Positions 21,691-37,892 of a stretch of 64,000 nucleotides of DNA are shown here, one piece after another. How positions within the stretch are numbered: the first letter of the stretch is position 1; each line of letters opens with the position of its first letter. Position numbers and translations under genes: made by a program. This DNA comes from Parcubacteria group bacterium. GTDB lineage: Bacteria; Patescibacteriota; Minisyncoccia; Moranbacterales; UBA2206. Where the stretch lies: positions 25,586 through 89,585 of the forward strand of contig JBAZUU010000003.1 in NCBI GenBank assembly GCA_041661275.1, given 5' to 3'. The notes below the pieces were generated by a model that was not told the origin of the DNA, ran no database searches, and saw only the letters and a list, made by a program, of their open reading frames with translations.

Positions 21691-22386
21691 ATGGCTTATT
21701 CCATTATACCTCCAATAGTAGTAGTCTTGAGCCTTATCGGTATAATTTTGTTTTTGATGAAAAAGGCTCCGCAAGTGAGACAGCTGAGAGAAGATGTTTC
21801 GAAGAGAGAATCGGGCGTCCTTTCTCCGGTAGCCAATGGCATTTCCAACGGATCGAAAATGCAATCAGTGAAACACGGATTTTTTCTGACACTGGAAAAA
21901 ATGACAAGAAAATTCAAGGTGATGTTTTTGAAGCTGGAAAATAAATTTACCTCATGGAACGAATCGATGAGGCAAAAGAGAAAAAATCATTCAGAAGAGG
22001 CAATGCCGAAAACGGATCAGCATAACGAAGTTTTTTCCGGTGACTTCAGACGCTCAGAAGATAATACTCAAAAAGTTGGCAGAAGAGGAATTTTCGTTCG
22101 GGAATCACTGGAAGAAAGGCTGAATCGTCCGATGGTGAGCGAAAAAGCAGTTATGCCGGAAGCGATACAACCGGAAATAAAAGACAGATTTGAAAAATTG
22201 CTCATCGAAAGGATCGCCGTCAATCCGAAAGACACCGAAGCTTATGAACGGTTGGGTGAATATTATTTTGAAATCCGCAATTACAATTATGCCAAAGAAT
22301 GTTTCAAGCAAGTGATCAAGCTCAATCCTGCCAACCAGGATGCCAAGAACCGGATGAAGAGATTGGAAAAGATTTTGTCGAGATAA
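21691..22386 (+). CDS. Membrane-anchored protein with C-terminal TPR-like repeat
   Basis: N-terminal TM helix (IIPPIVVVLSLIGIILFLM). C-terminus EAYERLGEYYFEIRNYNYAKECFKQVIKLNPAN is TPR-like. Confidence 0.5.
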   Translation: MAYSIIPPIVVVLSLIGIILFLMKKAPQVRQLREDVSKRESGVLSPVANGISNGSKMQSVKHGFFLTLEKMTRKFKVMFLKLENKFTSWNESMRQKRKNHSEEAMPKTDQHNEVFSGDFRRSEDNTQKVGRRGIFVRESLEERLNRPMVSEKAVMPEAIQPEIKDRFEKLLIERIAVNPKDTEAYERLGEYYFEIRNYNYAKECFKQVIKLNPANQDAKNRMKRLEKILSR

Positions 22387-22403
22387 ATTCTTTTTGTCAA
22401 TGT

Positions 22404-22475
22404 GCCGAAGTAGCTCAATGGTAGAGCAGCGCTCTTGTAAAGCGAAGGTTGGGGGTTCAAGTCCTCTCTTCGGCT
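22404..22475 (+). tRNA. tRNA-Thr (anticodon TGT)
   Basis: Manual fold. Acceptor gccgaag/cttcggc. D-arm gctc-aatggta-gagc. Anticodon loop cttgtaa. T-arm ggggg-ttcaagt-cctct. No encoded CCA. Confidence 0.7.
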
Positions 22476-22493
22476 CGTTAAAATAAAAATAAA

Positions 22494-22892
22494 ATGCACA
22501 TAAAAACAAAAGGATATATTGCAGAAATGTATGTAACGGCGCGGCTAATTGAAGACGGATGGCGAGTGTTGCATCCAATCGGAGAAAATAATCGGTATGA
22601 TCTGGTTGCTGAACGCGACGGAAAATTTATCAGAATCCAGGTTAAATATGTGACACCTAAAAAAGGTGTTTTGGATGTAAATTGCAGAAGTAGTAATAAT
22701 TGGTCAGTTTTGCATTATTCAGCTAAGGAAATTGATGTTATAGCAGCTTATAATGCGCAAACCAGAGATATCTATTACATACCAGTTTCAAAAATAAATA
22801 GAAGTTTGATAAAATTAAGAATATTTCCAACAAAAAACAACCAGAAGATAAATATTAATTCAGCAGAAAAATTTTTAAAATTAGAATATTAA
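22494..22892 (+). CDS. YraN-like (UPF0102) PD-(D/E)xK endonuclease family protein
   Basis: GYIAEMYVTARLIEDGWRVLHPIGENNRYDLVAERDGKFIRIQVKY matches the YraN pattern (G..aE..a...L...G..il.....GEIDLIa.dg...FVEVKtR). The gene is embedded in the tRNA cluster. Confidence 0.5.
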   Translation: MHIKTKGYIAEMYVTARLIEDGWRVLHPIGENNRYDLVAERDGKFIRIQVKYVTPKKGVLDVNCRSSNNWSVLHYSAKEIDVIAAYNAQTRDIYYIPVSKINRSLIKLRIFPTKNNQKININSAEKFLKLEY

Positions 22893-22897
22893 TATAT

Positions 22898-22980
22898 GGG
22901 TGTGTCGCATAGTGGCAATTGCTCCTGACTGTAAATCAGGCGTCCTACGGACTTCGCAGGTTCGAGTCCTGCCGCACCCA
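22898..22980 (+). tRNA. tRNA-Tyr (anticodon GTA, long variable arm)
   Basis: Acceptor gggtgtg/cgcaccc. Anticodon stem-loop cctga-ctgtaaa-tcagg. Variable arm cgtcctacggacttcg. T-arm gcagg-ttcgagt-cctgc. Confidence 0.8.
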
Positions 22981-23013
22981 CATAAAATAAATAGTTTGCC
23001 GTTGTTTCGATGT

Positions 23014-23088
23014 CGGGATTGCCGAGATAGCTCAGTTGGTAGTCGCCTCATCGGCGACCTGCCGAAGAGGCAGGAGCACGTCCTTGCC
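23014..23088 (+). pseudogene. Disrupted tRNA-Gly(GCC)-like 5' half: intact D-arm, 31-nt insertion, sequence through anticodon GCC, then truncated (no T-arm or 3' acceptor)
   Basis: gccgagaTAGCTCAGTTGGTAG[tcgcctcatcggcgacctgccgaagaggcag]GAGCACGtCCTTGCCt matches tRNA-Gly(GCC) up to position 36, then diverges. No TTCRA T-loop before the next tRNA. Confidence 0.35.
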
Positions 23089-23102
23089 TGATTTCGTTTA
23101 AT

Positions 23103-23174
23103 GCCCAGGTAGTTCAGTGGCAGAACGCTTCCATGGTAAGGAAGAGGTCGAGAGTCCGATTCTCTCCCTGGGCT
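23103..23174 (+). tRNA. tRNA-Thr (anticodon GGT)
   Basis: Acceptor gcccagg/cctgggc. D-arm gttc-agtggca-gaac. Anticodon stem-loop cttcc-atggtaa-ggaag. T-arm gagag-tccgatt-ctctc. Confidence 0.75.
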
Positions 23175-23273
23175 CAAGTTTAATAAAATTAATTGTATCC
23201 CTCATCCGTCTCCGACTATCCGTCGGAGCCACCTTCTCCCAGAGGGAGAAGGGGATTTGAAGGGACTGAATAT

Positions 23274-23429
23274 ATGGCGCGAGAAAATTTGGTGAAAATG
23301 CGATGCTCCGATTGTAAAAGTATCAATCATTTCACAACCAGAAACAAGAAAAAAATCAAAGAGAAATTGGAACTAAAAAAGTTCTGCAAAAAATGCCGGA
23401 AAAATACCGTGCACAAAGAGATGAAATAA
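23274..23429 (+). CDS. rpmG: 50S ribosomal protein L33
   Basis: MARENLVKMRCSDCKSINHFTTRNKKKIKEKLELKKFCKKCRKNTVHKEMK is the L33 zinc-ribbon pattern. ORF track 23193 has extra upstream residues. Confidence 0.8.
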   Translation: MARENLVKMRCSDCKSINHFTTRNKKKIKEKLELKKFCKKCRKNTVHKEMK

Positions 23430-23473
23430 GTGAGTGTCCGCCTTCGCTCTTTTCGAGCTTCGGCGGGACGAAG

Positions 23474-23547
23474 GCGGGATTCGTACAGTGGTAGTACATC
23501 GGTCTCCAAAACCGACGACGTAGGTTCGATTCCTACATCCCGTGCCA
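23474..23547 (+). tRNA. tRNA-Trp (anticodon CCA, CCA end encoded)
   Basis: Acceptor gcgggat/atcccgt. D-arm gtac-agtggtag-tac. Anticodon stem-loop tcggt-ctccaaa-accga. T-arm gtagg-ttcgatt-cctac. Discriminator g, then cca. Confidence 0.8.
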
Positions 23548-25137
23548 ACGTGTAATCAGCGAGCTTAATTGCTCGCTTTTTACTTTGTTAGAGCCACTTT
23601 CTCTCGGTTCTAACCCTTCATATTCACTATGCAAGGCAGGATACTTGTTTGTGATAGGCACAAACCAATCTTTGGCTTGAATGGCGGATATTTTGTCTTT
23701 TATGGCGTGGTTCGAGCCTAAATGCAAAATAAGCTCTCGTTTGCCCTCAAGGTCTCTTTTGAGAAATTCATTATGGGCGTAAGCCGCAAAAGAAAATGTC
23801 TTTTCCGTGAGCTCCAGCGTTTTTTCTTTGTTTTCTTCGGCGTGTTTCAGTTTATCCTCAAACTGGGCGATATTTTTCTTTAGCGTTTCCCGTTCAACTA
23901 CAAATTCATCATCGGTAATCAAATTTTTATAACGCATAGCCGTGAGGCTGGCAAGCTGATTTTTAGTTTCCGAAAGCGTTCTCTCTTGCATCTCTTTTAT
24001 TTTCTTCTCGTTATCAATCTCGGTGCCCTTTTTACTTTCGATAACTTCCAACGCCCAAGACAAAAATTCGGGAATCATTTCGTATTTTTCCAGTTCATAT
24101 TCCAGTTGCTCAAAAAGTTTTCTTTCCTCTAAAACTTTATTCTGCGTGCATTTTCTTTTTTTACTCTTTCTGGTGCAGTGATAATACGTATAGGCTCTTA
24201 GCTCGCCCGTGCTTTTAATGAGTTTATATTTTGTCTCTGCGGTATACATACAGCCACATTCCGGACAGCGGAACAAGCCAGTGAAAGGGAAATGGTGTTT
24301 TTTGGGTCTGGGTTTTCCCGCTCGTCCCAAAATGGCTTGAGCTCGGTCATATTCTTCGAGCGTTATCATTGGGGTGTGTTTTCCTGGATATTGTATGTTA
24401 TTGTGTTCGATAATTCCTGCATAAAAGATATTGGTAAAAATTTTATACATACCGCTCATTGCTAATGGCTTGTCTCCTAATCTCTTTTTCTTTATTGTCC
24501 GGAATCCCCATTCATTATTGAGCTTATTAAGGACTTGAGGCACTGTGTAATCACCAGTAAGCATTAAATCCCAAGCTTTACGAAGCAATCTGAATCGCAA
24601 TGGGTCTATTGGCATTGTGTGCGTTGCCAAATCATTTAAATAGCCTGTAGGTGCCATTCCAGGTCTCCACCCATCCTCTCGTTTCTTCTGGTTTCCTCTT
24701 TTAACAACCGTGCTTAAATCTCGAGAATACTGGTTAGCCATTCCACTTTCAACACTAAAAAGCAATACATTGTCCTCGGGTTTGTATTCCTTTTCTATTG
24801 TTTGGATTGATTTAATAACTCCTTGTTGCAAGAGCCAGCTTATTTTCCCGCTGTCTATTGGATTTCTGGAAAGACGGTTAAGGTGCCAGCATAAAATGCC
24901 ATCCGCCTCTCCACTTTCAATTCTTTTTATCATCTCATCGAATAGGGGACGATTGTTCGGTTTTTTGGCGGACTTTGATTCTTTGTAGGTATTCTTCACA
25001 TTAAAGCCCCTGTCCTTGGCTAATCGCTCCAGGCTTCCAACTTGGTCTTCGATTGATTGCACCTGGCGGTCTTCGCTTTCTGAAGATTTTCGAGCGTAGA
25101 GAAAATATTTTATTTCTTGCGGTTTAGTTGTTGCCAT
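23533..25137 (-). CDS. Large serine recombinase (phage/ICE integrase type)
   Basis: 534 aa. N-terminal resolvase catalytic domain (YARKSSESEDRQVQSIEDQ with catalytic Ser). Recombinase domain, zinc ribbon (CPECGC...YYHCTRK), C-terminal coiled coil. Confidence 0.8.
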   Translation of the reverse strand: MATTKPQEIKYFLYARKSSESEDRQVQSIEDQVGSLERLAKDRGFNVKNTYKESKSAKKPNNRPLFDEMIKRIESGEADGILCWHLNRLSRNPIDSGKISWLLQQGVIKSIQTIEKEYKPEDNVLLFSVESGMANQYSRDLSTVVKRGNQKKREDGWRPGMAPTGYLNDLATHTMPIDPLRFRLLRKAWDLMLTGDYTVPQVLNKLNNEWGFRTIKKKRLGDKPLAMSGMYKIFTNIFYAGIIEHNNIQYPGKHTPMITLEEYDRAQAILGRAGKPRPKKHHFPFTGLFRCPECGCMYTAETKYKLIKSTGELRAYTYYHCTRKSKKRKCTQNKVLEERKLFEQLEYELEKYEMIPEFLSWALEVIESKKGTEIDNEKKIKEMQERTLSETKNQLASLTAMRYKNLITDDEFVVERETLKKNIAQFEDKLKHAEENKEKTLELTEKTFSFAAYAHNEFLKRDLEGKRELILHLGSNHAIKDKISAIQAKDWFVPITNKYPALHSEYEGLEPRESGSNKVKSEQLSSLITRWHGM

Positions 25138-25249
25138 ATGATTATTATAATAATTTATTACTGATATAATTTTACCAAAAACGATTAGTTAAATTACATT
25201 TCAGGAAAAATGTGAAAAATTTTTGGAAAATTTATTGATGTTTTCATTA

Positions 25250-26002
25250 TCAACGAAAAAGTCGACTAAAAATATCCGGAGGCTCTTTTACGGGTATTAT
25301 TTTTTTCTTATGACGTAACTGCTCGAGTTTTTGTGTAATTTCTTTCATCCCGAGGATTCCACCCACGCCCCTAATTTCATTGATAGCCAGTTTTATATCT
25401 TCTTTCTTATAATATGTCTTATAAAATGACAAAGCCTTATTGGTTTCAGATTCTTCTGTATTTATTTTTTTTGGCTCGATTTCATCATATGATTTAATCC
25501 TATGATTTACAGGGTCAAATTCTACCTTAGTTGCGAGTTCATTTTGACTCTCTACCTTGTCCATTTTGACACTAGGCTCCAGATAGATGTTTTCCTTTTC
25601 AAAGCCAGGAAGCTTTTTCCAGACGGAAGTATCCAGAAGATAATAATTATTTACCATTCTTTTTCCAGGACGATTTACAAAAATCAGGTTGTACCTCTCA
25701 AGTTCTTTTAAGCCCTTCGATACGTACCGATTGTTGCAAATCCCGCCCTCTCTAACGATTTTTTCCATTCCTGGGAAGCACGCCTGAGTTTTTGCGTTAG
25801 CGTGTTTTGCTAATGAAAAATAAACCAGCGTAGCGTGCTTCGAAAGATTTTTGGCGTATCCCCATTCGTAATACTCATTGTCCACAAAAAATCTCTTTTG
25901 CTTGCCCTTTCTTCTAATCGGAAAATCAGGAGAAAACCCTCCGTGAGTCATTTTGAAAGCGGTGCTTCTGATTATTTTGTCTATACGTTTTATTTCACTC
26001 AT
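25250..26002 (-). CDS. HTH (winged-helix) DNA-binding protein, replication-initiator/HTH_36-like
   Basis: LVYFSLAKHANAKTQACFPGMEKIVREGGICNNRYVSKGLKELERYNLIFV resembles plasmid/phage HTH replication proteins. Confidence 0.4.
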   Translation of the reverse strand: MSEIKRIDKIIRSTAFKMTHGGFSPDFPIRRKGKQKRFFVDNEYYEWGYAKNLSKHATLVYFSLAKHANAKTQACFPGMEKIVREGGICNNRYVSKGLKELERYNLIFVNRPGKRMVNNYYLLDTSVWKKLPGFEKENIYLEPSVKMDKVESQNELATKVEFDPVNHRIKSYDEIEPKKINTEESETNKALSFYKTYYKKEDIKLAINEIRGVGGILGMKEITQKLEQLRHKKKIIPVKEPPDIFSRLFR

Positions 26003-26193
26003 ATTATTTTCATTTCCCGCCGCCTTTTTTGTAATAGCTTAAATTCCCGTTCCATCATCGGTTTATAAGTAAGCTCGACCTCACGTACAAGGCTTTCTGC
26101 CTGTTCGTGAGCCTCACTTAAATCAAGCTCCTTCCCGAGAAGCTCTCTATATAAAATCTGAAATTTTTTGATTTGTTTATCGGATAACGACAT
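25999..26193 (-). CDS. Small hypothetical protein (64 aa)
   Basis: ORF track. 4-nt overlap with the downstream gene. Confidence 0.35.
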   Translation of the reverse strand: MSLSDKQIKKFQILYRELLGKELDLSEAHEQAESLVREVELTYKPMMEREFKLLQKRRREMKII

Positions 26194-26311
26194 TTTTTGA
26201 AAATTAAAAATAGGCTATGTTTCAAGCCTACTTAAATTAAAAATGATTGTCGTTCTAGTCCGAGTGTTTCTTACATTTCTATGTGAATTTCTTAATACTT
26301 CTTAATGTTTC

Positions 26312-27001
26312 TTACTCGTCGATGTTTTTTAATTTTGCAATCCCTTCAGCAAGTTTATCTGGGTCTATGCTAAATTCTTCTATTTTATCTTTGGGAATGA
26401 AATTTCTAAATTTTACAGCATTCATTGAAACCTCAAAAAATAATTTCCGTATCTCATTGTTAAATCCAAGGTCGTTTAATATATGATGAAAGTCTTTTCC
26501 GATGGTCGCTTTCTCATTTTTTTCAATTTCATCCCTACGAATCAGTCTGTTGGGATTGCAAAAGACGTAGTTAAAAAAGTGGTCATTTTCTGACTCAAAG
26601 TTCGGCTTAGAAAGTTTATATTTATCATCCAGCGATATAGTTCTGTCTTCTTTGATGCTTATGTAATGACAATCCTTTTTGTTTATACGTCTTTCAAATT
26701 TTATTCCGTGTTCTTCACATAATTTGTCAAACCCAGGGCTTATTATTTTAATATCATACCAATTCGTTTTATTTTTATTTGCCTTTGCTCCATTTCTTGA
26801 TTTTTTTCTGCTCAAAATTTTTATAGCCTCAAAAACTTCTAAAACTTTTTCGACTATGTCTCTCTGGGTTTCTGGAAGTGGGTCTGTTTCTTGCGTATCA
26901 ATCTTGTACCACGTCCTGTCGCTTATTTTGGGATAATTTTCAAAATTATTTACAATTTTTTCAAGTACCCATTTTCTTTGTCGGGCTGATACTGAACTCA
27001 T
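26312..27001 (-). CDS. Hypothetical protein
   Basis: 229-aa ORF. No motif recognised. Confidence 0.45.
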   Translation of the reverse strand: MSSVSARQRKWVLEKIVNNFENYPKISDRTWYKIDTQETDPLPETQRDIVEKVLEVFEAIKILSRKKSRNGAKANKNKTNWYDIKIISPGFDKLCEEHGIKFERRINKKDCHYISIKEDRTISLDDKYKLSKPNFESENDHFFNYVFCNPNRLIRRDEIEKNEKATIGKDFHHILNDLGFNNEIRKLFFEVSMNAVKFRNFIPKDKIEEFSIDPDKLAEGIAKLKNIDE

Positions 27002-27269
27002 ATTTTTTATATTATTATTGATTCTTATATCCTTAACTTACCTCAAATCCGCCTTAAAATCAACTGAAAAACTTGATATTCTGGCTTTTTTGTAGTATCT
27101 TATAAGTGTTCACCTGCAGCAAATTTTTCGTGAGGAAAACTGCCTTTTCTATCCGATTACGGGTAGTAAGCGGCGGTCGAGTTCCATAATCGGACTTCCT
27201 CACGGATTGTCTGTTGTGGGTGAACGGCTCGGTCGTCGCTTTTTGTTTTGGCTAAATATTTATTTTAAT

Positions 27270-27842
27270 ATGATGAAAACTAAAATTCTGCCGATTATCA
27301 TTGGTTTAGGAATCGGAGTCGTAATATCTCCCGTCCTGGGAATGGCAATCAGCCCAACTAGAAATCTAATTATGAAACTGGCTCCCCAAGAAGCTATCTT
27401 GAGCTTGGCAGATAAAATCAAACAAAAGGAGACGAGCGAACAACAAAAATTAAGTTCTGAAGAAAAAGTCCAAGAAGTAATTCAGGAATCACAACCTGCA
27501 GAAAGTATTACGGAACCTCGACAGGAAATTATTCCCGCAGTTCAATCAGAAAACGACAAGGGACAGATAGAAGCCTGCCAAAATGCCAAAACCGAATGTG
27601 AGAAAAAAATAAAAAATATCAATAATGAAATAGATGATTTGGAAAACCAGGTCAAGGAGCAAGAAAAATTATATGGTGAAGCCAAAGAAAAGTATGGAAA
27701 CAGTACGAGCGACGGAGAGATAAAAATGTTGAAATATCGTGAGGCTATGTTGAAAAAATCAGAAGGAGATTTGAAATCCAGAAAGAAAGAGCTCCAGAAT
27801 ATCACTGGCGGAGAATGTAAAAATTATAATAAAACTTGTTAA
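27270..27842 (+). CDS. Membrane-anchored/secreted coiled-coil protein
   Basis: Start MMKTKILPIIIGLGIGVVISPVLG (TM/signal) within ORF-track ORF 27207. E/K-rich coiled coil. Confidence 0.45.
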   Translation: MMKTKILPIIIGLGIGVVISPVLGMAISPTRNLIMKLAPQEAILSLADKIKQKETSEQQKLSSEEKVQEVIQESQPAESITEPRQEIIPAVQSENDKGQIEACQNAKTECEKKIKNINNEIDDLENQVKEQEKLYGEAKEKYGNSTSDGEIKMLKYREAMLKKSEGDLKSRKKELQNITGGECKNYNKTC

Positions 27843-27846
27843 AAAA

Positions 27847-28239
27847 ATGAATCCACACTTTCAAAAAATAGGCGATGTTTTCCTAAATATTTCCAAAATT
27901 TGGGCTGGCGGGTGGGTTGTTATTATAGTCGCGTCTTTTCTAATAAATTCTGATAGCGATTTTATTCAAAATTTTTCGATACTGGATTTTTTCATTTTTT
28001 TAACCTTGGCATTTAGTCCATATATAATCATTAAAATAATAAAAATCGGGATGGAAAACAAAATAATAAATAACCAAGCAAAAAAGTATTGGCTGGTTTT
28101 AATTTTTATATTGATTTTTGGAGTTATTTTTTATTGGTTTGAATACCGACCAAGCCAGGCAAGAAAACAATGTTCCGCAAAATCATTCAGCGATAACTTA
28201 TATAAAAAATGTTTGCGGGAAAAGGGCTTGGAAAAATGA
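27847..28239 (+). CDS. Small multi-pass membrane protein
   Basis: 130 aa with three hydrophobic segments. Confidence 0.45.
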   Translation: MNPHFQKIGDVFLNISKIWAGGWVVIIVASFLINSDSDFIQNFSILDFFIFLTLAFSPYIIIKIIKIGMENKIINNQAKKYWLVLIFILIFGVIFYWFEYRPSQARKQCSAKSFSDNLYKKCLREKGLEK

Positions 28240-28694
28240 GCTATAAATCAAGCCAGTTTTACTTTTTATCTCTTTTGCTCTATATTTAAGGCACTTCACA
28301 AAGAAATCGAAACAAAGTATCCCGAAGGGAAGCGGACAGGAAACTGACCCAGAAGCCATATAAAATACCAGCGAGCATTAGTTCTTTTGTCGCCCTTGGC
28401 GAATAAGTCTCGCAGTATTTCCAATGAGAAGGTTGTCATCTTCTCACCGCACCGACCAAAAAGACGCTGGAAAGAATAATCCGCCGTAGGAGGAAAAATC
28501 TCAGCCTCGGGGTGTATCGAACGGTGCTAACATCCCCTAGACCAAGTAAAGGCCACTGCTTGTTTCGCAGAACAGTTCCATATCCTTACACGGGCAACCG
28601 TAGATGTAGGGTTATAGTTTATTTGTCCCAATTTAGCTTTTTGAGCTATATAGCTTTTTATACAGTTAATCCAATAAAGCCTTTGGCAACAAAA

Positions 28695-29402
28695 ATGCTT
28701 AGGAAAAAGCTATTAAGCAAAAAAGGGGCGATTTTGTCTCTTATTCTACTTTTTGGCATAATCGCAGTTATTTTTCTTTGGAATTATGAATTTAAGCCGG
28801 AAGAGAAACAGCAGATATGCCAACCGCTATTTTTGGAATACACCTTCGGCGATATTGATTCCCGCTTCAATCTGAAAAACGAAGAACTTATCGAAATGCT
28901 GAAAGACAGTGAGAAGATTTGGGAGGAACCGTTGGAATACGACGTTCTTCGCTACAATCCCGAAGCGTATTTTAAGATAAATTTTGTCTTTGACGAAAGA
29001 CAAGAATACGATATGCTCGAACAGGAATATTCCGAGCTTCAATATTCCCTCAATTTCTCGGAAAAAACCAAGAAAGAAACAGCAAAAATCCAAAAAGAAA
29101 TGGCTGTCATAGAAGCCAAGCAAGATTTGCTCTCCGATAAAATTTACAGCTCGGGAGAAAAATACGAGAAAGACGAAGCTTATACCCAGGGAGATTATAC
29201 GGGAAACTCCATCAATATTTATAATTTTGACGATAGGGATGAATTAGTAACGCTTCTCGCTCACGAGTTCGGGCACGCCTTGGAAGTTCCTGACAACCAA
29301 GACCCTGATTCGATTATGTGTGGGATTAACAGCGGACATTTTCGGCAGGCTACCCCAGATGATTTGGAAAAGGCGAAAGATTTTTGTGTAAGTTCAGAAT
29401 AG
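28695..29402 (+). CDS. Zincin-like metallopeptidase (HExxH) with N-terminal signal anchor
   Basis: HEFGHALEV...D..DSIMCG zinc-binding motif. Start at ATG 28695 (MLRKKLLSKKGAILSLILLFGIIAVIF); ORF track extends upstream to 28512. Confidence 0.5.
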   Translation: MLRKKLLSKKGAILSLILLFGIIAVIFLWNYEFKPEEKQQICQPLFLEYTFGDIDSRFNLKNEELIEMLKDSEKIWEEPLEYDVLRYNPEAYFKINFVFDERQEYDMLEQEYSELQYSLNFSEKTKKETAKIQKEMAVIEAKQDLLSDKIYSSGEKYEKDEAYTQGDYTGNSINIYNFDDRDELVTLLAHEFGHALEVPDNQDPDSIMCGINSGHFRQATPDDLEKAKDFCVSSE

Positions 29403-29449
29403 ATTTTTCGACATATAGCTTACAGTATTGAGAAATCTAAAAAAGTAAA

Positions 29450-30727
29450 ATGGACATACTTAGAAAGCCAATAAATTCATTTGGTCATAGCGATATAGTA
29501 TCTTTTTGTCAGGAAAAAAATCCTGAAGGTGTCCAGTTGGATTATAAGAAGGAACTTCCTCAAAGAGGCCTTGCTAAACATTTTGCCGCATTTTCAAATA
29601 CCAGAGGCGGTGTATTGATAATCGGGGTCGAGGAGGATAAAAAATCAGGATTTCCAGTTATGTGGGACGGAATCGAAGGAGATGCAAAAATGATTGAAAA
29701 AATTCACCAGGAAGCAAGTAATGTTGAGCCGATTCCTTCGTATGAAGTGCACGCTACCGATAAAATTGACGGCAGAAATTTTATTATTATTAGAATATTT
29801 GAAGGAGACAAAACTCCTTATTATGTCCAAAATGATTCTAATGTTTGGGTAAGGACTGGAAACATAAGTAATCCTATTGATATTGCCTCTCCAGATGGAT
29901 TGGAGTTGTTGTTTGGAAAAAAGGAAAAAGCTGAAAAGGCTAGAAATAATTTTTTACTGATAGGCAAGGAATTACACGAAGCGGCGATTGAGAAAGAAGA
30001 GAAAAAAATAAGAGAAGGATGGAAAAAAGAAATAGAAAAAGAAGGAGGTACGACTATTTTTAGATATGAAAAAATAATCGGAATTGATGATGCGATATGC
30101 AAAATAACACTACAGCCATATTTTCCAAGTAAATCACTTGTAGCTCCAAAAGAAATTAAAGACAATATTGATTCAATCCGCTTTAGAAATGGCAATTTTA
30201 CATTTCCGCAGTTAAATGTCGAGCCATCACCAAAAGGAATAAGATATTTTTCTTATCAAAGAAGCAGAGAAATACTTGAATCTCAGATAGTTCTTGGACA
30301 AGGACTAATTCAAAATATTTTTACAGTTTCAAGGAAAGGTCAGGATGAAGAACCTAGAATAATAAGCCTCCAAGCAATCGCCACTAGAGTTTTTGGAATA
30401 TTTAGATTTGCCGATAAATTCTACAATAAATACGGCTATCAGGGAGTGCTCATTGGAAGTATAGAAATAAGCGGGGCTGAAGATGCTCTAGCCAGAAGGA
30501 TAGTGCCATCGGGTATGGATTTTTGGGATAATGATAAAATAAAAGATAGCTTGCTGTCCGATTATTTATGGGAAATAAAAATTGATACAAGGATATTAAA
30601 AGAAAAGGATAAACTGAAAAAATATTACGAAGAAGTTCTGGAAGAAATTTATTGGGATTTTGGTTTTGAAGAATTTGGCGAAGGTGTTATTGATAAATTT
30701 TTTAAAGATAGCGGGTTCACATTCTGA
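29450..30727 (+). CDS. AlbA_2/Schlafen-like (divergent AAA, putative DNA-binding) domain protein
   Basis: N-terminus VQLDYKKELPQRGLAKHFAAFSNTRGGVLIIGVEED follows the AlbA_2 (PF04326) pattern E..lE.K......l.k.i.AfaN..GG.l.iGv.d. Confidence 0.5.
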   Translation: MDILRKPINSFGHSDIVSFCQEKNPEGVQLDYKKELPQRGLAKHFAAFSNTRGGVLIIGVEEDKKSGFPVMWDGIEGDAKMIEKIHQEASNVEPIPSYEVHATDKIDGRNFIIIRIFEGDKTPYYVQNDSNVWVRTGNISNPIDIASPDGLELLFGKKEKAEKARNNFLLIGKELHEAAIEKEEKKIREGWKKEIEKEGGTTIFRYEKIIGIDDAICKITLQPYFPSKSLVAPKEIKDNIDSIRFRNGNFTFPQLNVEPSPKGIRYFSYQRSREILESQIVLGQGLIQNIFTVSRKGQDEEPRIISLQAIATRVFGIFRFADKFYNKYGYQGVLIGSIEISGAEDALARRIVPSGMDFWDNDKIKDSLLSDYLWEIKIDTRILKEKDKLKKYYEEVLEEIYWDFGFEEFGEGVIDKFFKDSGFTF

Positions 30728-31006
30728 TGATTTATCAAGGTCAATTTCAGGGGGTAATTTTGGTTCATATTACATTTTTAATACCCACCTCTTCATAGAA
30801 GGGTTTGAAATCTTAATAGAATCTGGAATATCTGATAGCTAAACTCCAGATTATAATTTCCGCGAAAATGTTGACAAAATGCCGAAAGTGTTATACGATA
30901 GCACATCGGTTCTTTTTATTTCTATGCGGGCTATAAATGGCTGAAATCCATTAAAAATATAGGTGACTTCAACATCAGAAAAAAAACCAAAAGGAGGCAA
31001 GTAATT

Positions 31007-31885
31007 ATGAAATCCGTAAAAACAGTAATGATACTGGCGGAAGAAAAAAGGAAGCGTGCAGATGTTCTGGCTCAACAGGCCAAGGACATTTACACCGAAG
31101 TCAGTCAGGATTGGAACAACATTGCCCAACGTATCAGGGATGGAGAAACCTCGGGCGACCCGCTCAAGGATTTTATCGCCACAAGGTATTTCGCATTCGA
31201 CGAAAAAACCGAAGAGCGTTTCCGTGCCCTTCAAGCAAGGTTCAAGAATTTTCAAGGGCAATATGCAATGCTGGTGCGGGTAAGTAAGGAGAGGAGTCAC
31301 GCACATAGCGATAATTTCGTCGAAAAAACGGAGTTGAGCGTCGGTGTCCTCAGCGGAGACTCATTTATCCTTGACCCGCCTCAGGCACTGTTCTGGTTTC
31401 CTACGGGCGGTAAGAATGCCGTTTGCTACGACCGCTTCAATCAAAACCCCGTTTATATGCGTGAGGGCGACCTGACTCTTCCGCTCCTTGAAGATATGGG
31501 GCTCAAAACATCGTCTGAACTGCAAATCCTCATCGGAGACGAAGAAGTTGCTGGCTGGTTTGAGGAACAGCGTGGTGAAAATTATTTCAAGGTTTTTTGT
31601 GGCTTCAATGCAGTTCTGGGCAGGTCAGTGATACATCCCAGGCTCTCGGTCTATCTCAGCAAAAAACGGGACGAGTGGCTTAAGGAACACGACGCCTTGA
31701 AAGCCAAGAAGGTCTGGCTGGAAGCCGAGTGCAAGCGACTCAAGAAGCCAGGCGTAACCGACGGCAGTGTGGTCAAAATGGAAAAAGAAATTCAGGAAAT
31801 TCCCGAAAGGATAAAGGCCATCATCTCTGAGGCTTCTGGCTGGGGCGTCAATGACCTGGACTGGGAAAACGCCACCGCAGCCTAA
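31007..31885 (+). CDS. Hypothetical protein (gene 1 of a GC-rich three-gene cassette)
   Basis: 292-aa ORF. SD aaaaggagg before ATG. Promoter-like ttgaca-N17-tacgat at about 30873-30901. GC markedly higher than flanks. Confidence 0.5.
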   Translation: MKSVKTVMILAEEKRKRADVLAQQAKDIYTEVSQDWNNIAQRIRDGETSGDPLKDFIATRYFAFDEKTEERFRALQARFKNFQGQYAMLVRVSKERSHAHSDNFVEKTELSVGVLSGDSFILDPPQALFWFPTGGKNAVCYDRFNQNPVYMREGDLTLPLLEDMGLKTSSELQILIGDEEVAGWFEEQRGENYFKVFCGFNAVLGRSVIHPRLSVYLSKKRDEWLKEHDALKAKKVWLEAECKRLKKPGVTDGSVVKMEKEIQEIPERIKAIISEASGWGVNDLDWENATAA

Positions 31886-32101
31886 CGCAGTCCATTACAG
31901 CCCGTGTTTTTTGGAGAAGGAACACTACCGTTCCTTCTCCCCATTTCTAAGTTTGGCAGTAAATGGTAAATTTGGATGATGGATTAAATAAAGTTCTTTT
32001 TAGCGATATGACTTCGGGATGAAGTCATATAAAAAATTATTAACTCGATAGTAAGCGGGATGCTTCCTATCATAACCAGCTAAAAGCTGAAGGAGTTTGT
32101 G

Positions 32102-32662
32102 ATGAGCACTATGTCCGAAAAAAGAAGAGATGCGTTTTTTGAGGAATTTCCTTGGCTCAGCAAATATGTAAAGTTGAAACACAGGAAATATATCAGAAGC
32201 ATCAAGGTGTCCAGAGCGGATAAAGACTTACTCGGAAGAACTGCTTTGTCTGAGTTTATCGACAAAGGCGAGGACAGCTACTATATTTTCGAGCAACTCG
32301 TCCTTCTTGATGAAAATGGCGACATCCTAAAGCGAGAACTTCCCTCAGAGGATTTCAGTATCTGGAGACCTTGCACCTGGAGAAGGCATCGTTTCATTGT
32401 TGGCAGAGTAACCGAACCTCATACTGTTGCAGAATGTATTGTTAGTCTCGGTTCTGAATCTGAAAGGATTGCGTTTATCTTTTCTGTTTTCTGTAATAAC
32501 CTTGTAATCTACAAGCCTCCCAAGAAGTTTAATATTCAGACGCTTCTAGAAGAGGTTGAAGAAGATAAGAGACGGGAAGCGGAAGAAGAGAAGAAAAAAG
32601 AAGCAGAAATCTTTGATGCTCAAAAACAATCTATCCGAAAAGAATGGGAATCGCTGGATTAA
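32102..32662 (+). CDS. Hypothetical protein (gene 2 of the GC-rich cassette)
   Basis: SD aaggag then ATG 32102. K/E-rich C-terminus. Confidence 0.45.
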   Translation: MSTMSEKRRDAFFEEFPWLSKYVKLKHRKYIRSIKVSRADKDLLGRTALSEFIDKGEDSYYIFEQLVLLDENGDILKRELPSEDFSIWRPCTWRRHRFIVGRVTEPHTVAECIVSLGSESERIAFIFSVFCNNLVIYKPPKKFNIQTLLEEVEEDKRREAEEEKKKEAEIFDAQKQSIRKEWESLD

Positions 32663-32681
32663 CTAAAAAGGAGAACCTTCT

Positions 32682-33041
32682 ATGGTTGCCGAGACGTGGA
32701 CAGTTTCAACTGAGGACAAGCTCGGGTTTAGGATGTATCCTCTTCGGGACGAGAAACGCCAGTTTCCTGATATGGTGCCTGTGAGCATACACATTGGTAA
32801 GTTTTCCTGTCGTGGATATGTGCCCAGCGAAGAATACGACGGGCATTACGAGTCGCCGTATGCGGAACTCATCGTTAAATATGACAGTTCCGAAAGGATG
32901 CAACCCGACCTGACCAAGTGGAATTTCCAGAAGATGTCCTGCTGGCTGACAAAGGACGCTGTAGCCTATTCGCTCTATATCAAGAAGCAGAAATTGGAGC
33001 GGTTACGAACTTACCTGCGAAATTCCTGCAGGCTTCCGTAA
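32682..33041 (+). CDS. Hypothetical protein (gene 3 of the GC-rich cassette)
   Basis: 119-aa ORF 19 nt after gene 2. SD aaaaggag. Confidence 0.45.
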   Translation: MVAETWTVSTEDKLGFRMYPLRDEKRQFPDMVPVSIHIGKFSCRGYVPSEEYDGHYESPYAELIVKYDSSERMQPDLTKWNFQKMSCWLTKDAVAYSLYIKKQKLERLRTYLRNSCRLP

Positions 33042-33070
33042 CAGCATCTTTCAGACAATCATTGACCAAA

Positions 33071-33110
33071 AGGCGGCACAGAGAACCATATTCTGCACCG
33101 CCTTTTTCTT
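33071..33110 (+). terminator. Rho-independent terminator closing the GC-rich cassette
   Basis: ggcggcacagagaaccatattctgcaccgcc hairpin followed by tttttctttt. Confidence 0.5.
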
Positions 33111-33148
33111 TTGAACGAAAAAAATTAAAAATTTTTATCTAGAAAGTT

Positions 33149-33200
33149 TTTAGAAGTATTTCTGGCTATGTCTCATTTTTATCCCCCCTCCCTCTTGTTA
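33149..33200 (-). pseudogene. 5' gene remnant A (SD GGGAGGGGGG plus ATG, ORF MRHSQKYF*), paralogous to remnant B
   Basis: Minus-strand ATG at 33173-33175 preceded by gggagggggg. About 85% nt identity with 36222-36272. Confidence 0.4.
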
Positions 33201-33225
33201 GGGGTTTGTGTTATAATTTGCTTGT

Positions 33226-34210
33226 GATGCTATCATTAGAAACTAAAACTAAAGAAATAATCGACAGTCTAGTCCGACTAGCTAGGGAAGTAGAAATTTG
33301 CAATGGAATGGGCTTTTTTGATGGCAATAAATGTGCCGAAGATTTTTTTAAGGGCATTTTGAACCGTGTTTATGACTGCAATCTTATCAATCTTAATTTG
33401 GAAAAAAATAATTTTCCAGCAGTTGACTTAGGCGATAAATCCAAGAGATTAGCAATTCAAGTTACAGCGAGCACGGGGAGAGCAAAAATTTCAAATTCTA
33501 TAACGAAATTTGTAAATCATAACCTCTACGAAACTTATAAAAAGCCAATATTCTTAATCATTGGAAAAAAGCCAAAATATTCCAAAAATTTCGATGCCGA
33601 CACGGAGGGAAAATTTATTTTCAACCCTTCTGAAGATATTTTAGATATTACCGATTTAATAAAAATAATTTCTTCTTTACCCGTTGAAAAAATCACAGAC
33701 CTTAATGAGTTTATTATTTCTAATGTTACCGACGTATTATCTATTGACCCGATTAAAATTAACGAGCAGGATATTAAAAATTTAATTCTAGGCATAAGAG
33801 ATGCTATAAATGACGATACCTCGTTTAAACAAAAATATTCCAGTGATATTCCGATGAGATTCCAGGATTATATTGTAGAAAAAAATAAACTAAACGAGAT
33901 AGATAAATTGTTTTTTGAACAGGTGTTCGCTAGAAGTCTCGCGTATAGCGATGATATTAAGAATTTTTTATCCGACCCCATAAACGCAGAGATAAAAGAG
34001 TGGTATTTTACTATTAGTAGTGAACTTCAGAATGAATATATAAAAAATAGAGATAATTTCGATTTGTTGGAATTTATAGACAAGATTTATGATAAGGTCT
34101 GTAGAAAATTTAAGGCGGATTTGTCATATGACAAAAGAAAAATTAAGGTAATGCTTCATTGTATGTATTTTCATTGTGATTTAGGAATAAATCCAGAGGA
34201 AAAAACATAA
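33226..34210 (+). CDS. Putative effector with SMEK-like/restriction-endonuclease-fold N-terminal domain (candidate ABC-3C C-component)
   Basis: Motif NFPAVDLGDKSKRLAIQVTASTG (D...QVT, PD-(D/E)xK-like). ATG 33226 preceded by tataat at 33211. ORF track begins at TTG 33206. Confidence 0.4.
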
Positions 34211-34452
34211 TGATAACACCAAATAAATATACAAATTTAGACTTATCAGTCTTGAATATCGGGGCTGAAATTGTTAAGGTGCTTCAGAAAAGCAGTCTTC
34301 TTAAATATGATGACCTGTTAAATCAGATTCTGCTAAAGAAGGGGAGGGGGGCGAAAGAAATTTTTGTCTATTCTTTAAATTTTTTATTTGTTCTGAATAT
34401 AATTAAATACCATAGTTCTGAGGATATAATCGAATTTTATGAAACTCGTTAA
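34210..34452 (+). CDS. Small protein (80 aa), candidate ABC-3C middle component
   Basis: Start overlaps the upstream stop (TAATG). Its end overlaps the downstream ATPase by 14 nt. Confidence 0.4.
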   Translation: MITPNKYTNLDLSVLNIGAEIVKVLQKSSLLKYDDLLNQILLKKGRGAKEIFVYSLNFLFVLNIIKYHSSEDIIEFYETR

Positions 34453-36199
34453 GATATATTCTAATATTTCCAGTATGAAGCCAGTTATTTTTAATTCTGG
34501 CTTAAATATAATATACGGCGATGTAAGTCAATATGAAGGAGACAGCAATGAGCATAATTTAGGAAAAACTTCGCTTGTCTACCTGATAGATTTTTTGTTA
34601 TTAAAAAAAATAGATAAAAATAATATATTTAGGAAAAGAAGGAGTAATTTCTTAGGCTGGGATTTTTATTTGGAAGTAGAGCTGGATGATAAATCATACC
34701 TTACGATTAAAAGAAATCTGGTTAATGATTCCAGAATATCAATTAAGCTTCATAAGGAAGGAAATCAGGACTTGTCGTCGGAGGTGTTTTGGGACTATAA
34801 AGATAAATCAATAAGTGCGAAAAAAGAAGAGGAAAATGCGGTTAAGATTTTGAAAAATATATTGAAATTCGATGTCTTAAGCGAATATAATTTGAGGCAT
34901 TTTCTTTCCTATCTTCTAAGAACCCAAAATGATTATGCGGATGTTTTTAGATTAAGCACGTTCAAAAAAGACAAAAACTGGAAGCCACCCCTTCTTTCTC
35001 TATTTGGATATAACGGACAACTATTTGAGAAGAAGTATGATTTAGAGCAGGAAATTTCTATCCGTAGAGAATTGATTGCAAAAATGAAGTCGGATAATCT
35101 CATAGAGAAATCAGAGGAAGCTTTCAAATTACAAGCTGCCATTAAGGCTAGGGAGGATGAAAAGAAATCAATAGAAAAAAATCTTGAAATGCTCAATTTT
35201 TTTACCAGGGATGAACAAATGACGGAAAAAATAGTGAAAGAATTTGAGACAAAAATTAGTATCCTAAATTCTGAGGAATATAGCCTAAAATACGAGGTCG
35301 ACAAGATTAATAAATCATTGGAAAATAATGTTTCCGTTAAAGTTTCTGATGTTAAAAAGATATATGAAGAGGTGGAAATATTTTTTCCAGATAAGCTTAC
35401 TAAATCTTATGAGGAATTAGCCAATTTTAATAAGCAAATTTCAGACGAGAGGTCAAAATACCTAAAAAAAGAATTGGACAATCTGAATGATAGGCTGATG
35501 ATTATTAAAAAAGACCTCAAGGAATATAATGATAAGTTATCAGAAGCCTTATCGATAATAAAGGAGAAAGATGCATTTATAAAATTTAGGAAATATCAAA
35601 ATGAGCTTATAAAAATAGAAACAGACATTGCCATATATAAACAAAAAATTGAGAGTATAGACACTATAGAAAATTATAGTAATGCGATTAGCGAGATAAG
35701 AGAAAAATCCAAAGAAATATCCTCAATAATTAAGGGGGATTTGGCGGAAGAAAAAAATCCATTGCAAGAAATACGTGAGATGTACACTGAGATTTTTAGA
35801 AAAACTATGGATGGAACTGCTACTTTCGCAATAACTCCAAATAAATATGGTTATTTTGATTTTGAGCCGTTTGTAATAAGCGGCGGTGATTTAACAGGGC
35901 AGGGAGATGGATACACCGCTACAAAAGTTCAATGTGCCGCGTTTGTTATAGCGGCATTGGCTTACTATTCAAAAAATTCTTTTTATAAATTTGCCTATCA
36001 CGATGGCATTTTTGAGGGCTGGGGAGATAATCCTAAGATAAATTTTATCAATCTAATTAGGGAATATTGTGATAAATATAAAATTCAGTATATCGCAAGT
36101 ATGATAAAAAGTGATATTCCCAAAAACTTTGATTTTGAAAAAGAAGAAATAATAATTACTTTAGACAAAAACCAGCCATTATTTGGTATCAAATTTTGA
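34439..36199 (+). CDS. SMC/ABC-type ATPase with long coiled-coil insert (candidate ABC-3C ATPase)
   Basis: N-terminal head KLVKIYSNISSMKPVIFNSGLNIIYGDV...NLGKTSLVYL (RecF/SMC-like Walker A). Roughly 230-aa heptad-rich coiled coil. C-terminal head with FAYHDGIFEGWGD (Walker B/D-loop-like). Confidence 0.5.
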   Translation: MKLVKIYSNISSMKPVIFNSGLNIIYGDVSQYEGDSNEHNLGKTSLVYLIDFLLLKKIDKNNIFRKRRSNFLGWDFYLEVELDDKSYLTIKRNLVNDSRISIKLHKEGNQDLSSEVFWDYKDKSISAKKEEENAVKILKNILKFDVLSEYNLRHFLSYLLRTQNDYADVFRLSTFKKDKNWKPPLLSLFGYNGQLFEKKYDLEQEISIRRELIAKMKSDNLIEKSEEAFKLQAAIKAREDEKKSIEKNLEMLNFFTRDEQMTEKIVKEFETKISILNSEEYSLKYEVDKINKSLENNVSVKVSDVKKIYEEVEIFFPDKLTKSYEELANFNKQISDERSKYLKKELDNLNDRLMIIKKDLKEYNDKLSEALSIIKEKDAFIKFRKYQNELIKIETDIAIYKQKIESIDTIENYSNAISEIREKSKEISSIIKGDLAEEKNPLQEIREMYTEIFRKTMDGTATFAITPNKYGYFDFEPFVISGGDLTGQGDGYTATKVQCAAFVIAALAYYSKNSFYKFAYHDGIFEGWGDNPKINFINLIREYCDKYKIQYIASMIKSDIPKNFDFEKEEIIITLDKNQPLFGIKF

Positions 36200-36203
36200 T
36201 TTT

Positions 36204-36272
36204 TTAAATAAGAGGTTTCAGGAAGGATTTCTGGCTAAGCCTCATATTTTAGACCCCCTCCCCCCATTCGGC
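36204..36272 (-). pseudogene. 5' gene remnant B (SD GGGGGGAGGGGG plus ATG, ORF MRLSQKSFLKPLI*), paralogous to remnant A
   Basis: Minus-strand ATG at 36243-36245. Peptide MRLSQKSF vs MRHSQKYF in A. Confidence 0.4.
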
Positions 36273-36325
36273 GGGTTTGGAGTCAGCTTTTTATAAAAAA
36301 TATAATAGTGGGTAGGGGATAGCGA

Positions 36326-36517
36326 TTACTGATGATTTTTTCTTAGGTCAGGTATGTAAATATACTCTTTTTTGTTCTCAAAGATAGTTATGACTTCCTC
36401 TACAACTGCGTGCCAGTCAAAACAAGGCTTATTTAGGCCTTGTTTTTGTATGGGGGTGGTAGGATGTTCGAACTGGCCGGCAAGCCGTTGACTTATGGCT
36501 GATTTTATGCAAGTATA
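36326..36517 (-). pseudogene. 3' gene remnant C1 (63 codons, no start; ends ...WHAVVEEVITIFENKKEYIYIPDLRKNHQ*)
   Basis: Codon-by-codon minus-strand translation from stop at 36326-36328 up to the in-frame stop at 36518-36520. Paralogous to 37980-38087. Confidence 0.45.
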
Positions 36518-37221: not shown

Positions 37222-37222
37222 C

Positions 37223-37891: not shown

Positions 37892-37892
37892 T

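Follow-up and report, generated by a model that had tools for sequence, protein, structure and literature searches.

A dead tRNA-Thr(GGT) fragment in a Parcubacteria tRNA cluster as the probable front of a decayed nested tRNA gene, and nested tRNA genes in related loci

The stretch of DNA from a Parcubacteria group bacterium analysed here (hereafter "the window", 64,000 nucleotides in all) carries a tRNA gene cluster in which a fragment of a tRNA gene lies between tRNA-Tyr(GTA) and tRNA-Thr(GGT). We think that positions 23021-23102, which comprise this fragment and a linker, are probably the decayed front of a nested "tRNA-in-tRNA" gene: a tRNA-Thr(GGT) copy with the acceptor strand GCCGAGA, now dead, would have lost its place to an incoming GCCCAGG-type tRNA-Thr(GGT), which is the functional gene today. 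The scar in the window is in itself minor, and the interest lies in a process that recurs in relatives. An initial annotation, made from the letters of the window, had taken the fragment for a disrupted tRNA-Gly(GCC) and had listed the lack of tuf as a further anomaly. The four tRNA genes, rpmG and the 132-aa open reading frame (ORF) that it recognised here are real, and their coordinates hold (ARAGORN, Rfam, Pfam). The cluster is functionally complete: no tRNA-Gly is broken in it and no tuf is missing from it.

The relatives with which the window was compared are about 90 loci (labelled L with a number) from Candidatus Moranbacteria and other bacteria of the Candidate Phyla Radiation (CPR); the locus collection was anchored on a TPR gene and comprises 3 genome loci and 80 metagenome loci. 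Among named genomes, those closest to the window are Candidatus Moranbacteria/Moraniibacteriota, a lineage of the CPR (Patescibacteria). In the window, tRNA genes were sought with ARAGORN (default settings, intron mode and lowered thresholds) and with Rfam RF00005 (on 22300-23700, at E<=10). The four tRNA genes give the same calls in intron mode and at lowered thresholds, and score 56-68 bits with RF00005. Neither program finds a tRNA in 22982-23102, and neither folds 23014-23102 into a complete tRNA, such as the initial annotation thought it might have overlooked. Its description of the fragment was accurate on three points, namely that it is the 5' part of a tRNA, that it has an insert of about 31 nt with two hairpins after the D-loop, and that no T-arm follows. 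With Rfam at gathering thresholds, the whole window and 12 of the loci gave tRNAs only.

From the alignments we read the fragment proper (23021-23083) as positions 1-31 of a former tRNA-Thr(GGT), and not as part of a tRNA-Gly. Its first 22 nt (GCCGAGATAGCTCAGTTGGTAG) are identical (22/22) to the start of both the intact tRNA-Thr(ggt) and the intact tRNA-Thr(tgt) of L082. Once the hairpin insert (the "module" below) is removed, the fragment agrees with the tRNA-Thr(GGT) of L082 at 33 of 36 positions: positions 1-31 are all identical, and the three differences all fall in the anticodon loop. The segment GAGCACGTCCTTG is identical (13/13) to the 5' exon of tRNA-Thr(GGT) in L079 and L028. Such agreement goes far beyond chance, the D-arm and the module together being the same at 48 of 48 positions in the metagenome locus L013.

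That the fragment is instead the relic of an ancestral tRNA-Gly(GCC), decaying in place within a cluster of the thrU-tyrU-glyT-thrT type, seems to us very improbable. It is true that the fragment has the place of E. coli glyT, with Tyr before and Thr after it, and that without its insert 32 of its 36 positions, CCTTGCC among them, agree with E. coli tRNA-Gly(GCC). However, the mismatches are in the acceptor stem, where GCCGAGA is of the Thr type and has C3 against the G3 of E. coli and B. subtilis tRNA-Gly (GCGG...), and the homologous fragments of L013 and L043 are remnants of tRNA-Thr. The supposed Gly anticodon lies in a stretch (TTGCCTG.TTTCG) that is a linker common to L068 and L053, two loci with complete nested genes. 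The tRNA part of the fragment ends at position 31 because TTGCC belongs to this linker and not to an anticodon loop; it does not reach 36/37, where the truncation had first been placed.

The make-up of the cluster in the lineage also speaks against a Gly gene. All the loci that reach far enough (about 80) have the order Thr-Tyr-Thr-(rpmG)-Trp, in which either of the two Thr isoacceptors may come first. In 84 loci ARAGORN calls not one tRNA-Gly, the cluster lacks both Gly and tuf in all of the roughly 80 related loci, and no tuf is found among the scanned ORFs of the window. The gap between Tyr and the second Thr is just 3-30 nt in many loci, and the distance from the last Thr to Trp is usually 200-400 nt, which is space for rpmG alone. 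The absence of both genes is therefore the way in which this lineage is built and not a peculiarity of this genome, so that neither the "missing" Gly nor the "missing" tuf is an anomaly. The comparison first made with the E. coli-type arrangement thrU-tyrU-glyT-thrT-tufB is sound for the order Thr(TGT)-Tyr(GTA)-...-Thr(GGT), which continues in the window with rpmG and tRNA-Trp, but does not extend to Gly and tuf, which every related locus examined lacks at this place.

Complete nested genes are present in relatives. In L068, the resident tRNA-Thr(GGT) is divided into positions 1-31 and 32-76, and between these two parts stand, in this order, a left linker (CCGCCTGCTTTCGCTAAT), an intact gene of another allele type and a right linker (AAGCATTGCGGGCAGGC). 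Compared with the intact allele of L020, the first resident half is identical at 31 of 31 positions and the second at 98% over 44 nt; as the outer gene thus still nearly equals a working allele, it must have been interrupted recently, or else its halves remain under constraint. L053 has the same layout, but in it the gene that has been split belongs to the GCCCAGG type, the very type that is intact in the window. A search for tRNA remnants, in which intact genes were masked and all intact tRNAs were used as queries against the clusters, gave 77 fragments in 38 loci (some of them merely genes cut by contig ends), and in at least nine distinct loci an intact gene has on either side, within about 20-50 nt, one half of a broken gene for its own isoacceptor. 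Nested Thr(GGT) genes are split at 31/32 (L053, L068) and nested Thr(TGT) genes at about 35/36 (L010, L021/22, L028, L032/34, L051, L065 and L007/55/56). Left and right linkers of nested genes are complementary, with duplex energies of -14 to -27 kcal/mol; examples are TCCCGCACCTTTT / AAAAGGTGCGGGA in L007 and CCCGCCCGCCT / AGGCG..CGGGCGGG in L051, and the differences between the linkers of L006 and L007 are compensatory. RNAfold turns the L068 gene into a cloverleaf within the anticodon arm of another cloverleaf (-73 kcal/mol, z -3.2).

The window has the left side of this arrangement: a 5' half (23021-23083), a linker (23084-23102) and a gene for the same isoacceptor (23103-23175). Its linker (TTGCCTGATTTCGTTTAAT) aligns with the left linkers of L068 and L053. 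Moreover, the linker motif GCCTGNYTTCG turns up at only four distinct places in the roughly 0.75 Mb of locus sequence, and three of these (window, L053, L068) stand past position 31 of a tRNA-Thr(GGT) 5' half, 4-6 nt before an intact tRNA-Thr(GGT). Remnants of the 5' part directly upstream of an intact tRNA-Thr(GGT) are found also in L013, L026, L032, L053, L068 and L076. A right linker followed by a resident 3' half was not found in window positions 23176-23273, and the simplest reading is that both have been lost; two GC-rich hairpins before rpmG (23210-23252) occupy the position where L068 and L053 have their right linker and 3' half.

L042 and L043 are 99.97% identical over 6.2 kb to the left. 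Where L043 has its remnant, L042 has an ordinary, intact tRNA-Thr(GGT) that agrees with it over the first 22 nt, and the identity of the two loci ends exactly at GGTAG. In the window itself, a still older layer precedes the fragment. The segment 22986-23005 (AATAAATAGTTTGCCGTTGT) is identical (20/20) to L074 5993-6012, where it is continuous with an intact tRNA-Thr(GGT) of the GCCGTTG type, and is 95% identical to L011/L087; this type is the commonest in the lineage and that of the nearest relatives of the window's backbone. With an 8-nt GCCGTTG remnant, a dead GCCGAGA copy and an intact GCCCAGG gene, there are thus three generations of tRNA-Thr(GGT) at one site. The whole 121-nt gap between Tyr and Thr reads ATAAAATAAATAGTTT GCCGTTGT TTCGATGTCGGGATT GCCGAGATAGCTCAGTTGGTAG [TCGCCTCATCGGCGACCTGCCGAAGAGGCAGG] AGCACGTCC TTGCCTGATTTCGTTTAAT, the module being set in square brackets.

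A different kind of interruption also occurs in the tRNA-Thr(GGT) of relatives. In 14 loci (Table 1), a gene of the GCCGTTG type carries an insertion of 193-212 nt at 36/37, after the anticodon GGT, which escapes both ARAGORN and Rfam RF00028. It is the intron already published for Patescibacteria, i.e. a divergent group I intron at 36/37 of tRNA-Thr(GGU) that RF00028 misses (PMC13011429). The tRNA-Thr(GGT) of the window contains no intron, ARAGORN reading it as an uninterrupted gene. The remnant does break close to the intron site, as the initial annotation had pointed out, but the actual break is at 31/32, where the anticodon stem passes into the loop, and what follows is a linker and a whole tRNA gene. 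The linker could be taken for what is left of the 5' end of the intron, whose internal guide region also has TTGCC, but this similarity is too short to be decisive.

We find it scarcely credible that the fragment could be one half of a tRNA that is split, permuted or interrupted by an intron, and that splicing or a partner in trans would make it whole. The break in the anticodon arm, the group I intron at 36/37 of the same gene in relatives (PMC13011429) and the nested cloverleaves predicted by RNAfold for the full L068 form might be cited in its favour. However, the fragment stands only 19 nt before the next complete tRNA, its D-stem is interrupted by 32 nt, ARAGORN finds nothing in intron mode, and the fragments of L013 and L043 likewise run directly into an intact tRNA-Thr(GGT). 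The free 3' half of tRNA-Gly(GCC) for which a search had been suggested did not turn up either: within the 64-kb window, to which the search was limited, nothing pairs with GCCGAGA (TCTCGGC plus T-arm) except a chance match with three mismatches at 37588. Bacteria are not known to have a tRNA splicing endonuclease, and since an intact tRNA-Thr(GGT) adjoins the fragment, no function is missing. The other suggestion of the initial annotation, a scar from an earlier integration, was nearer the mark, although the gene concerned would be a tRNA-Thr(GGT), displaced by an incoming copy of tRNA-Thr(GGT).

The module that interrupts the D-arm reads (G)TCGCC-TCATC-GGCGA(C), then CCTGCC-GAAGA-GGCAGG. In the window, L013 and L043 it comes after the GGTAG of a tRNA-Thr 5' remnant whose acceptor stem differs each time; the L013 and L043 remnants have GTCGTTG and GCCGTTG, with an intact tRNA-Thr(GGT) 7 nt further on, and in L043 a third hairpin lies between the two. 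The 64-kb window contains a single copy of the module. GC hairpins are about four times more frequent in the window than in shuffled sequence, and five of them fall within 23042-23577. Dead tRNA copies often have GC-rich hairpins in their loops, with stems that resemble the linker stems: CCTGCC..GGCAGG in the window, L013, L043, L016, L050 and L057, TCCGCC..GGCGGA in L026, L032 and L076, and CCCCGC..GCGGGG in L005 and L081. Nine matches of the first hairpin to viral contigs, all of them GC-rich contigs without tRNA-like flanks, were judged to be due to chance. The hairpins could be halves of palindromic sites, cassettes that have collapsed, small palindromic elements with no survivors except in dead copies, or stems formed in the RNA to insulate the folding of the inner tRNA. 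As short GC-rich inverted repeats in conserved genes, with related stems at several sites, they recall repetitive extragenic palindromic (REP) sequences, Rickettsia palindromic elements and miniature inverted-repeat transposable elements (MITEs). In contrast to these, the hairpins are seen here only in and around tRNA genes and have no transposase assigned to them, and the module occurs only once in 64 kb, so that this is a resemblance only.

One may ask whether the remnant with its module, instead of being neutral debris, is conserved because it has a function as RNA or DNA, for instance as a leader for tRNA processing or stability, or as a recognition site. We consider this unlikely, even if there is more to be said for it than for a Gly relic. 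The 48 nt are 100% identical in the window and L013 while the flanking protein genes are at about 74% at the DNA level, the predicted fold has -31.3 kcal/mol (z -2.5), dead copies of several different tRNAs have hairpins whose stems are alike, and the linkers of nested genes keep their complementarity through compensatory differences. Nevertheless, the module is present in just 3 of about 60 loci with an intact tRNA-Thr(GGT), the sequence after it differs from locus to locus, L043 tolerates a third hairpin in its middle, and recent horizontal transfer would equally explain the identity.

Still less likely, in our opinion, is an assembly artefact, in which sequences of different strains would have been fused into a chimera where a tRNA sequence is conserved. 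tRNA clusters do often break metagenome assemblies, many of the contigs bearing the nuclease gene discussed below are very short, and the contigs of two relatives stop right after tRNA-Tyr. But the 121-nt gap is identical in the NCBI metagenome-assembled genome (MAG) GCA_041665805.1 (contig JBAYID010000003.1, 101.5 kb) and in the ENA primary assembly, the module exists in contigs from two further metagenomes that are independent of this one (the length of one contig is 172 kb), and the hairpins and linkers at the junction are present in neither putative parent.

The 132-aa ORF between tRNA-Thr(TGT) and tRNA-Tyr (called as a 121-aa gene in the protein collection) is relevant to how such scars may come about. 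In Pfam, its one strong match is to PF11645, PDDEXK_5, with E 9.7e-33 and 113.6 bits (cut-off 26.1 bits), and it has no match to YraN / UPF0102 (PF02021) at E<=0.01; the label "YraN-like", given to it at first, should thus be abandoned. It also matches I-Ssp6803I (PDB 2OST) with E 6.8e-8, the YDLV and QVK motifs being aligned, and D36, Q49 and K51 are invariant in four copies of the nuclease. Enzymes of the PF11645 family have been reported as homing endonucleases in introns of tRNA-fMet and tRNA-Arg(UCU) (PMC13011429). The gene in the window shares with I-Ssp6803I, which is encoded in the intron of a cyanobacterial tRNA-fMet, its Pfam family, a match in sequence and a location in a tRNA gene region. 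Unlike I-Ssp6803I, it is not within a self-splicing intron but free-standing, with a complete tRNA gene on each side, at distances of 17 and 5 nt. It is a new, free-standing placement of a known family.

This gene is present in 5 of about 84 syntenic loci (window, L035, L042, L043 and L084), always between Thr(tgt) and Tyr, and the four copies of the relatives have 75-76% protein identity to that of the window. L052 is informative in this respect: it is 94-96% identical in nucleotides to the left flank of L042/L043, and the 3' part of its TPR gene aligns to L042 almost without mismatch, yet it has no nuclease gene, and its Thr(tgt) and Tyr alleles differ from those of L042, starting right past the TPR stop codon. 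In a large protein collection, homologues of the nuclease form at least 189 clusters at 58-89% identity. Eight further contexts (including MAGs named Staskawiczbacteria and Omnitrophica) all place the gene past a tRNA-Thr(TGT), or before a tRNA-Tyr where the contig starts at the gene; in the Omnitrophica MAG the upstream genes are unrelated, and L103 has differing neighbour genes. Seven of the contigs extend upstream of the gene, and in six of these its distance from tRNA-Thr(tgt) is 17-23 nt; for L101 and L102 ARAGORN places the nearest tRNA-Thr(tgt) about 470 nt before the gene, and small ORFs are called in the space between them. Downstream, the distance to a tRNA-Tyr is 7-15 nt in L103 and L104 and about 125 nt in L099 and L100, and ARAGORN calls none after the gene in L097, L098, L101 and L102. 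Judging from these gene contexts, this is the distribution that would be expected of a site-specific, horizontally moving, free-standing homing endonuclease.

Precedents for such an arrangement are known in phages, where SegB of phage T4 and other free-standing homing endonucleases are encoded in tRNA gene clusters; such an enzyme is expected to promote its own inheritance together with the adjoining tRNA alleles. Here, as there, a small nuclease gene stands between tRNA genes and outside an intron, and the mosaic tRNA alleles of the window fit co-conversion. The difference is that SegB is a GIY-YIG enzyme of a phage, whereas the gene of the window is a predicted PD-(D/E)XK nuclease found in CPR chromosomes at a fixed Thr(TGT)-Tyr site.

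The mosaicism is evident from the fact that the nearest relatives change with the segment of the cluster. The PSP1 and TPR genes and rpmG are closest to those of L011, L087 and L010 (rpmG is 85% identical to that of L011/L087). The Thr(tgt) allele is instead closest to L014 (94.5%), unlike the backbone's nearest relatives; the nuclease gene and Tyr are closest to L035, L042 and L043 (tRNA-Tyr is 92.9% identical to that of L042/L043, which carry the nuclease), the hairpin module to L013 (100%), and Thr(ggt) to L048 and L059 (97%). The scenario that we propose is the following. Nucleases would cut tRNA alleles that are free of the nuclease gene, and repair from the donor would bring in either the nuclease gene with resistant flanking tRNA alleles or a short cassette with a whole replacement tRNA. 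Function would then move to the incoming copy, while the interrupted resident would decay and gather GC hairpins. In the window, such a replacement would have taken place at the tRNA-Thr(GGT) site at least twice.

Several points weigh against a decayed nested gene and against this scenario, and should be kept in mind. The assignment of the window to the nested class rests on a 5' half and a 19-nt linker, the right side being absent, and the linkers of the window and L068 have about 13/18 identities (counted by eye) besides sharing the 11-nt motif. Several nested cassettes (e.g. those of L021/L022) are in clusters without a nuclease ORF, and neither the complementary linkers nor the hairpin module are required by a simple homing model; the homing mechanism itself we infer from family membership and distribution. 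Finally, a short piece derived from Gly is formally possible in the fragment, since its three differences from L082 sit in the anticodon loop, and no tRNA-Gly(GCC) of the lineage's own was found in the loci for comparison. These differences are, however, explained if the stretch in question is read as linker.

The PF11645 gene is not alone. Small nuclease-type genes of three families have been inserted into the cluster, each gene lying a few bases 5' of a tRNA gene. One family, of about 200-224 aa, has 30 copies with an N-terminal helix-turn-helix (HTH) domain and a C-terminal domain in which LYWxEGxK, N, W and QF are invariant, and falls into four subfamilies, each directly 5' of one particular tRNA of the cluster. 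Searched against PDB, Pfam and PHROGs, the profile of this HTH-LYWxEG family was matched in its N-terminal HTH only, the C-terminal domain giving no match; this domain is possibly LAGLIDADG-like. Another family consists of nine GIY-YIG genes. Those that were read (L005, L007 with its twins L055/L056, and L081, as well as L028 by its shared N-terminal extension) have a dead tRNA before them and an intact gene of the same tRNA after them, and the dead tRNA is interrupted by a hairpin of the CCCCGC..GCGGGG type; in L081, two hairpin-bearing dead copies flank the gene, besides the intact tRNA.

These observations lead us to a bolder idea, which we put forward tentatively and would not call probable: that the fragment is one footprint of a so far undescribed class of tiny mobile cassettes in Patescibacteria, each made of a whole tRNA gene with GC-rich inverted repeats, which insert into the loop or arm of a gene for the same isoacceptor, replace it by what they bring along and would be the splicing-free counterpart of tRNA introns. 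Solo GC hairpins in dead tRNA copies would then be empty or collapsed cassettes, and the PF11645, GIY-YIG and HTH-LYWxEG genes the likely mobilisers. Integrase-borne islands that target tRNA genes resemble such cassettes in that incoming DNA breaks a tRNA gene and brings a replacement, leaving a partial duplicate beside an intact gene. Classical integrase islands carry only the 3' part of the tRNA together with an integrase, and leave the 3' fragment kilobases away. In contrast, the nested insert is about 110 nt long, consists of a whole tRNA gene with complementary GC-rich ends and no recombinase, and leaves both halves, or the 5' half, within 20 nt. Neither the papers on tRNA introns of Patescibacteria nor full-text literature searches yielded any account of tRNA genes nested in this way, or of tRNA remnants that bear hairpins, in this group, which is not proof of novelty.

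Table 1. Features of the tRNA cluster in the window and of related elements in other loci
Feature	Position	Strand	Remarks
tRNA-Thr(TGT)	22404..22476	+	Intact; ARAGORN; Rfam tRNA 67.6 bits; upstream neighbour of the nuclease gene
PF11645 nuclease-type ORF, 132 aa	22494..22892	+	Starts 17 nt past tRNA-Thr(TGT), stops 5 nt short of tRNA-Tyr
tRNA-Tyr(GTA)	22898..22981	+	Intact; ARAGORN, Rfam; allele type travelling with the nuclease gene
Spacer and GCCGTTGT, first 8 nt of a GCCGTTG-type tRNA-Thr(GGT)	22982..23005	+	Oldest remnant layer
15 nt between two remnants, TTCGATGTCGGGATT	23006..23020	+	From sequence; no match in the loci
Dead tRNA-Thr(GGT), positions 1-22	23021..23042	+	Acceptor 5' strand GCCGAGA and D-arm to G22
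Two-hairpin module, 32 nt	23043..23074	+	Inserted between tRNA positions 22 and 23
Dead tRNA-Thr(GGT), positions 23-31	23075..23083	+	AGCA CGTCC: D-stem 3' strand and anticodon-stem 5' strand
Left linker TTGCCTGATTTCGTTTAAT, 19 nt	23084..23102	+	Holds the "GCC" earlier read as a Gly anticodon
tRNA-Thr(GGT), rare GCCCAGG type	23103..23175	+	Intact, intron-less; ARAGORN, Rfam 64.3 bits
Two GC-rich hairpins before rpmG	23210..23252	+	CTCCGAC-TATCC-GTCGGAG, then CCTTCTCCC-AGA-GGGAGAAGG; hairpin scan
rpmG (ribosomal protein L33)	23274..23429	+	PF00471, E 6.6e-16
tRNA-Trp(CCA)	23474..23547	+	Intact; ARAGORN, Rfam 67.8 bits; end of the cluster, edge of the integrated island
Complete nested tRNA-in-tRNA genes	L068 6685-6867; L053 6831-7015
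Intron-bearing tRNA-Thr(GGT)	L011 6610-6880; L010, L028, L030, L045/46, L049, L061, L064, L067, L071, L073, L079, L087
HTH-LYWxEG family genes	L010 6125-6763; L033 6480-7133; L030 2233-2823; L014 5493-6116; 26 more
GIY-YIG genes	L005 3231-3553; L007 7905-8288; L081 5624-5925		Associated tRNAs Trp, Tyr, Thr-ggt
GC-rich stretch of about 130 nt	L079 6085-6224; L055 6530-6634; L047 4190-4301; L025 1790-1924		Downstream of intact tRNA-Tyr

Some observations on the surroundings may be added. In four loci, a GC-rich stretch of about 130 nt downstream of an intact tRNA-Tyr starts with GGGATTCGAA and ends in a tRNA-Tyr 3' end (AATCCCTCCCTnCCCAC); Rfam at gathering thresholds finds no family for it in L079, one of its carriers. 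Upstream of the tRNA cluster of the window are rpsB, tsf, a PSP1-domain gene and the TPR gene, and downstream of tRNA-Trp begins an island that opens with a large serine recombinase (gene 23533-25137, minus strand, its stop codon overlapping the 3' end of tRNA-Trp). This island (23533-39105) encodes, besides the recombinase, HTH_36, Schlafen AlbA_2, SMEK / ABC-3C CTD12, DUF2326 and Fic proteins, and looks like an integrated defence-type element; a search of the window found neither a duplicated end of tRNA-Trp that could be an att site nor the far boundary of the island. To the right of tRNA-Trp, L042 and L043 are unrelated to each other. Mobile DNA is indicated a second time in the window by a 616-aa protein (2622-4472) with domains of a type IV secretion coupling protein (TrwB/TraG-like) and of the HerA type. 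Finally, the GC content is 48-51% at 45800-47900 against about 39% elsewhere, and tandem repeats of 27-33 nt inside overlapping ORFs at 45900-46408 suggest a gene for a repetitive protein.

In practical terms, the fragment should be annotated neither as a lost nor as a split tRNA. More generally, the Thr-Tyr-Thr-rpmG-Trp cluster of Moranbacteria and other CPR bacteria is in constant turnover, with nuclease genes, tRNA alleles exchanged between distant genomes, and nested tRNA genes. If the cassettes are indeed mobile, selfish DNA could invade an essential RNA gene without any splicing, by bringing a spare copy with it. Mobile cassettes would, besides, account for the fragmentation of metagenome assemblies at tRNA clusters, and would mean that tRNA counts, when used as a measure of completeness, can mislead in these phyla.

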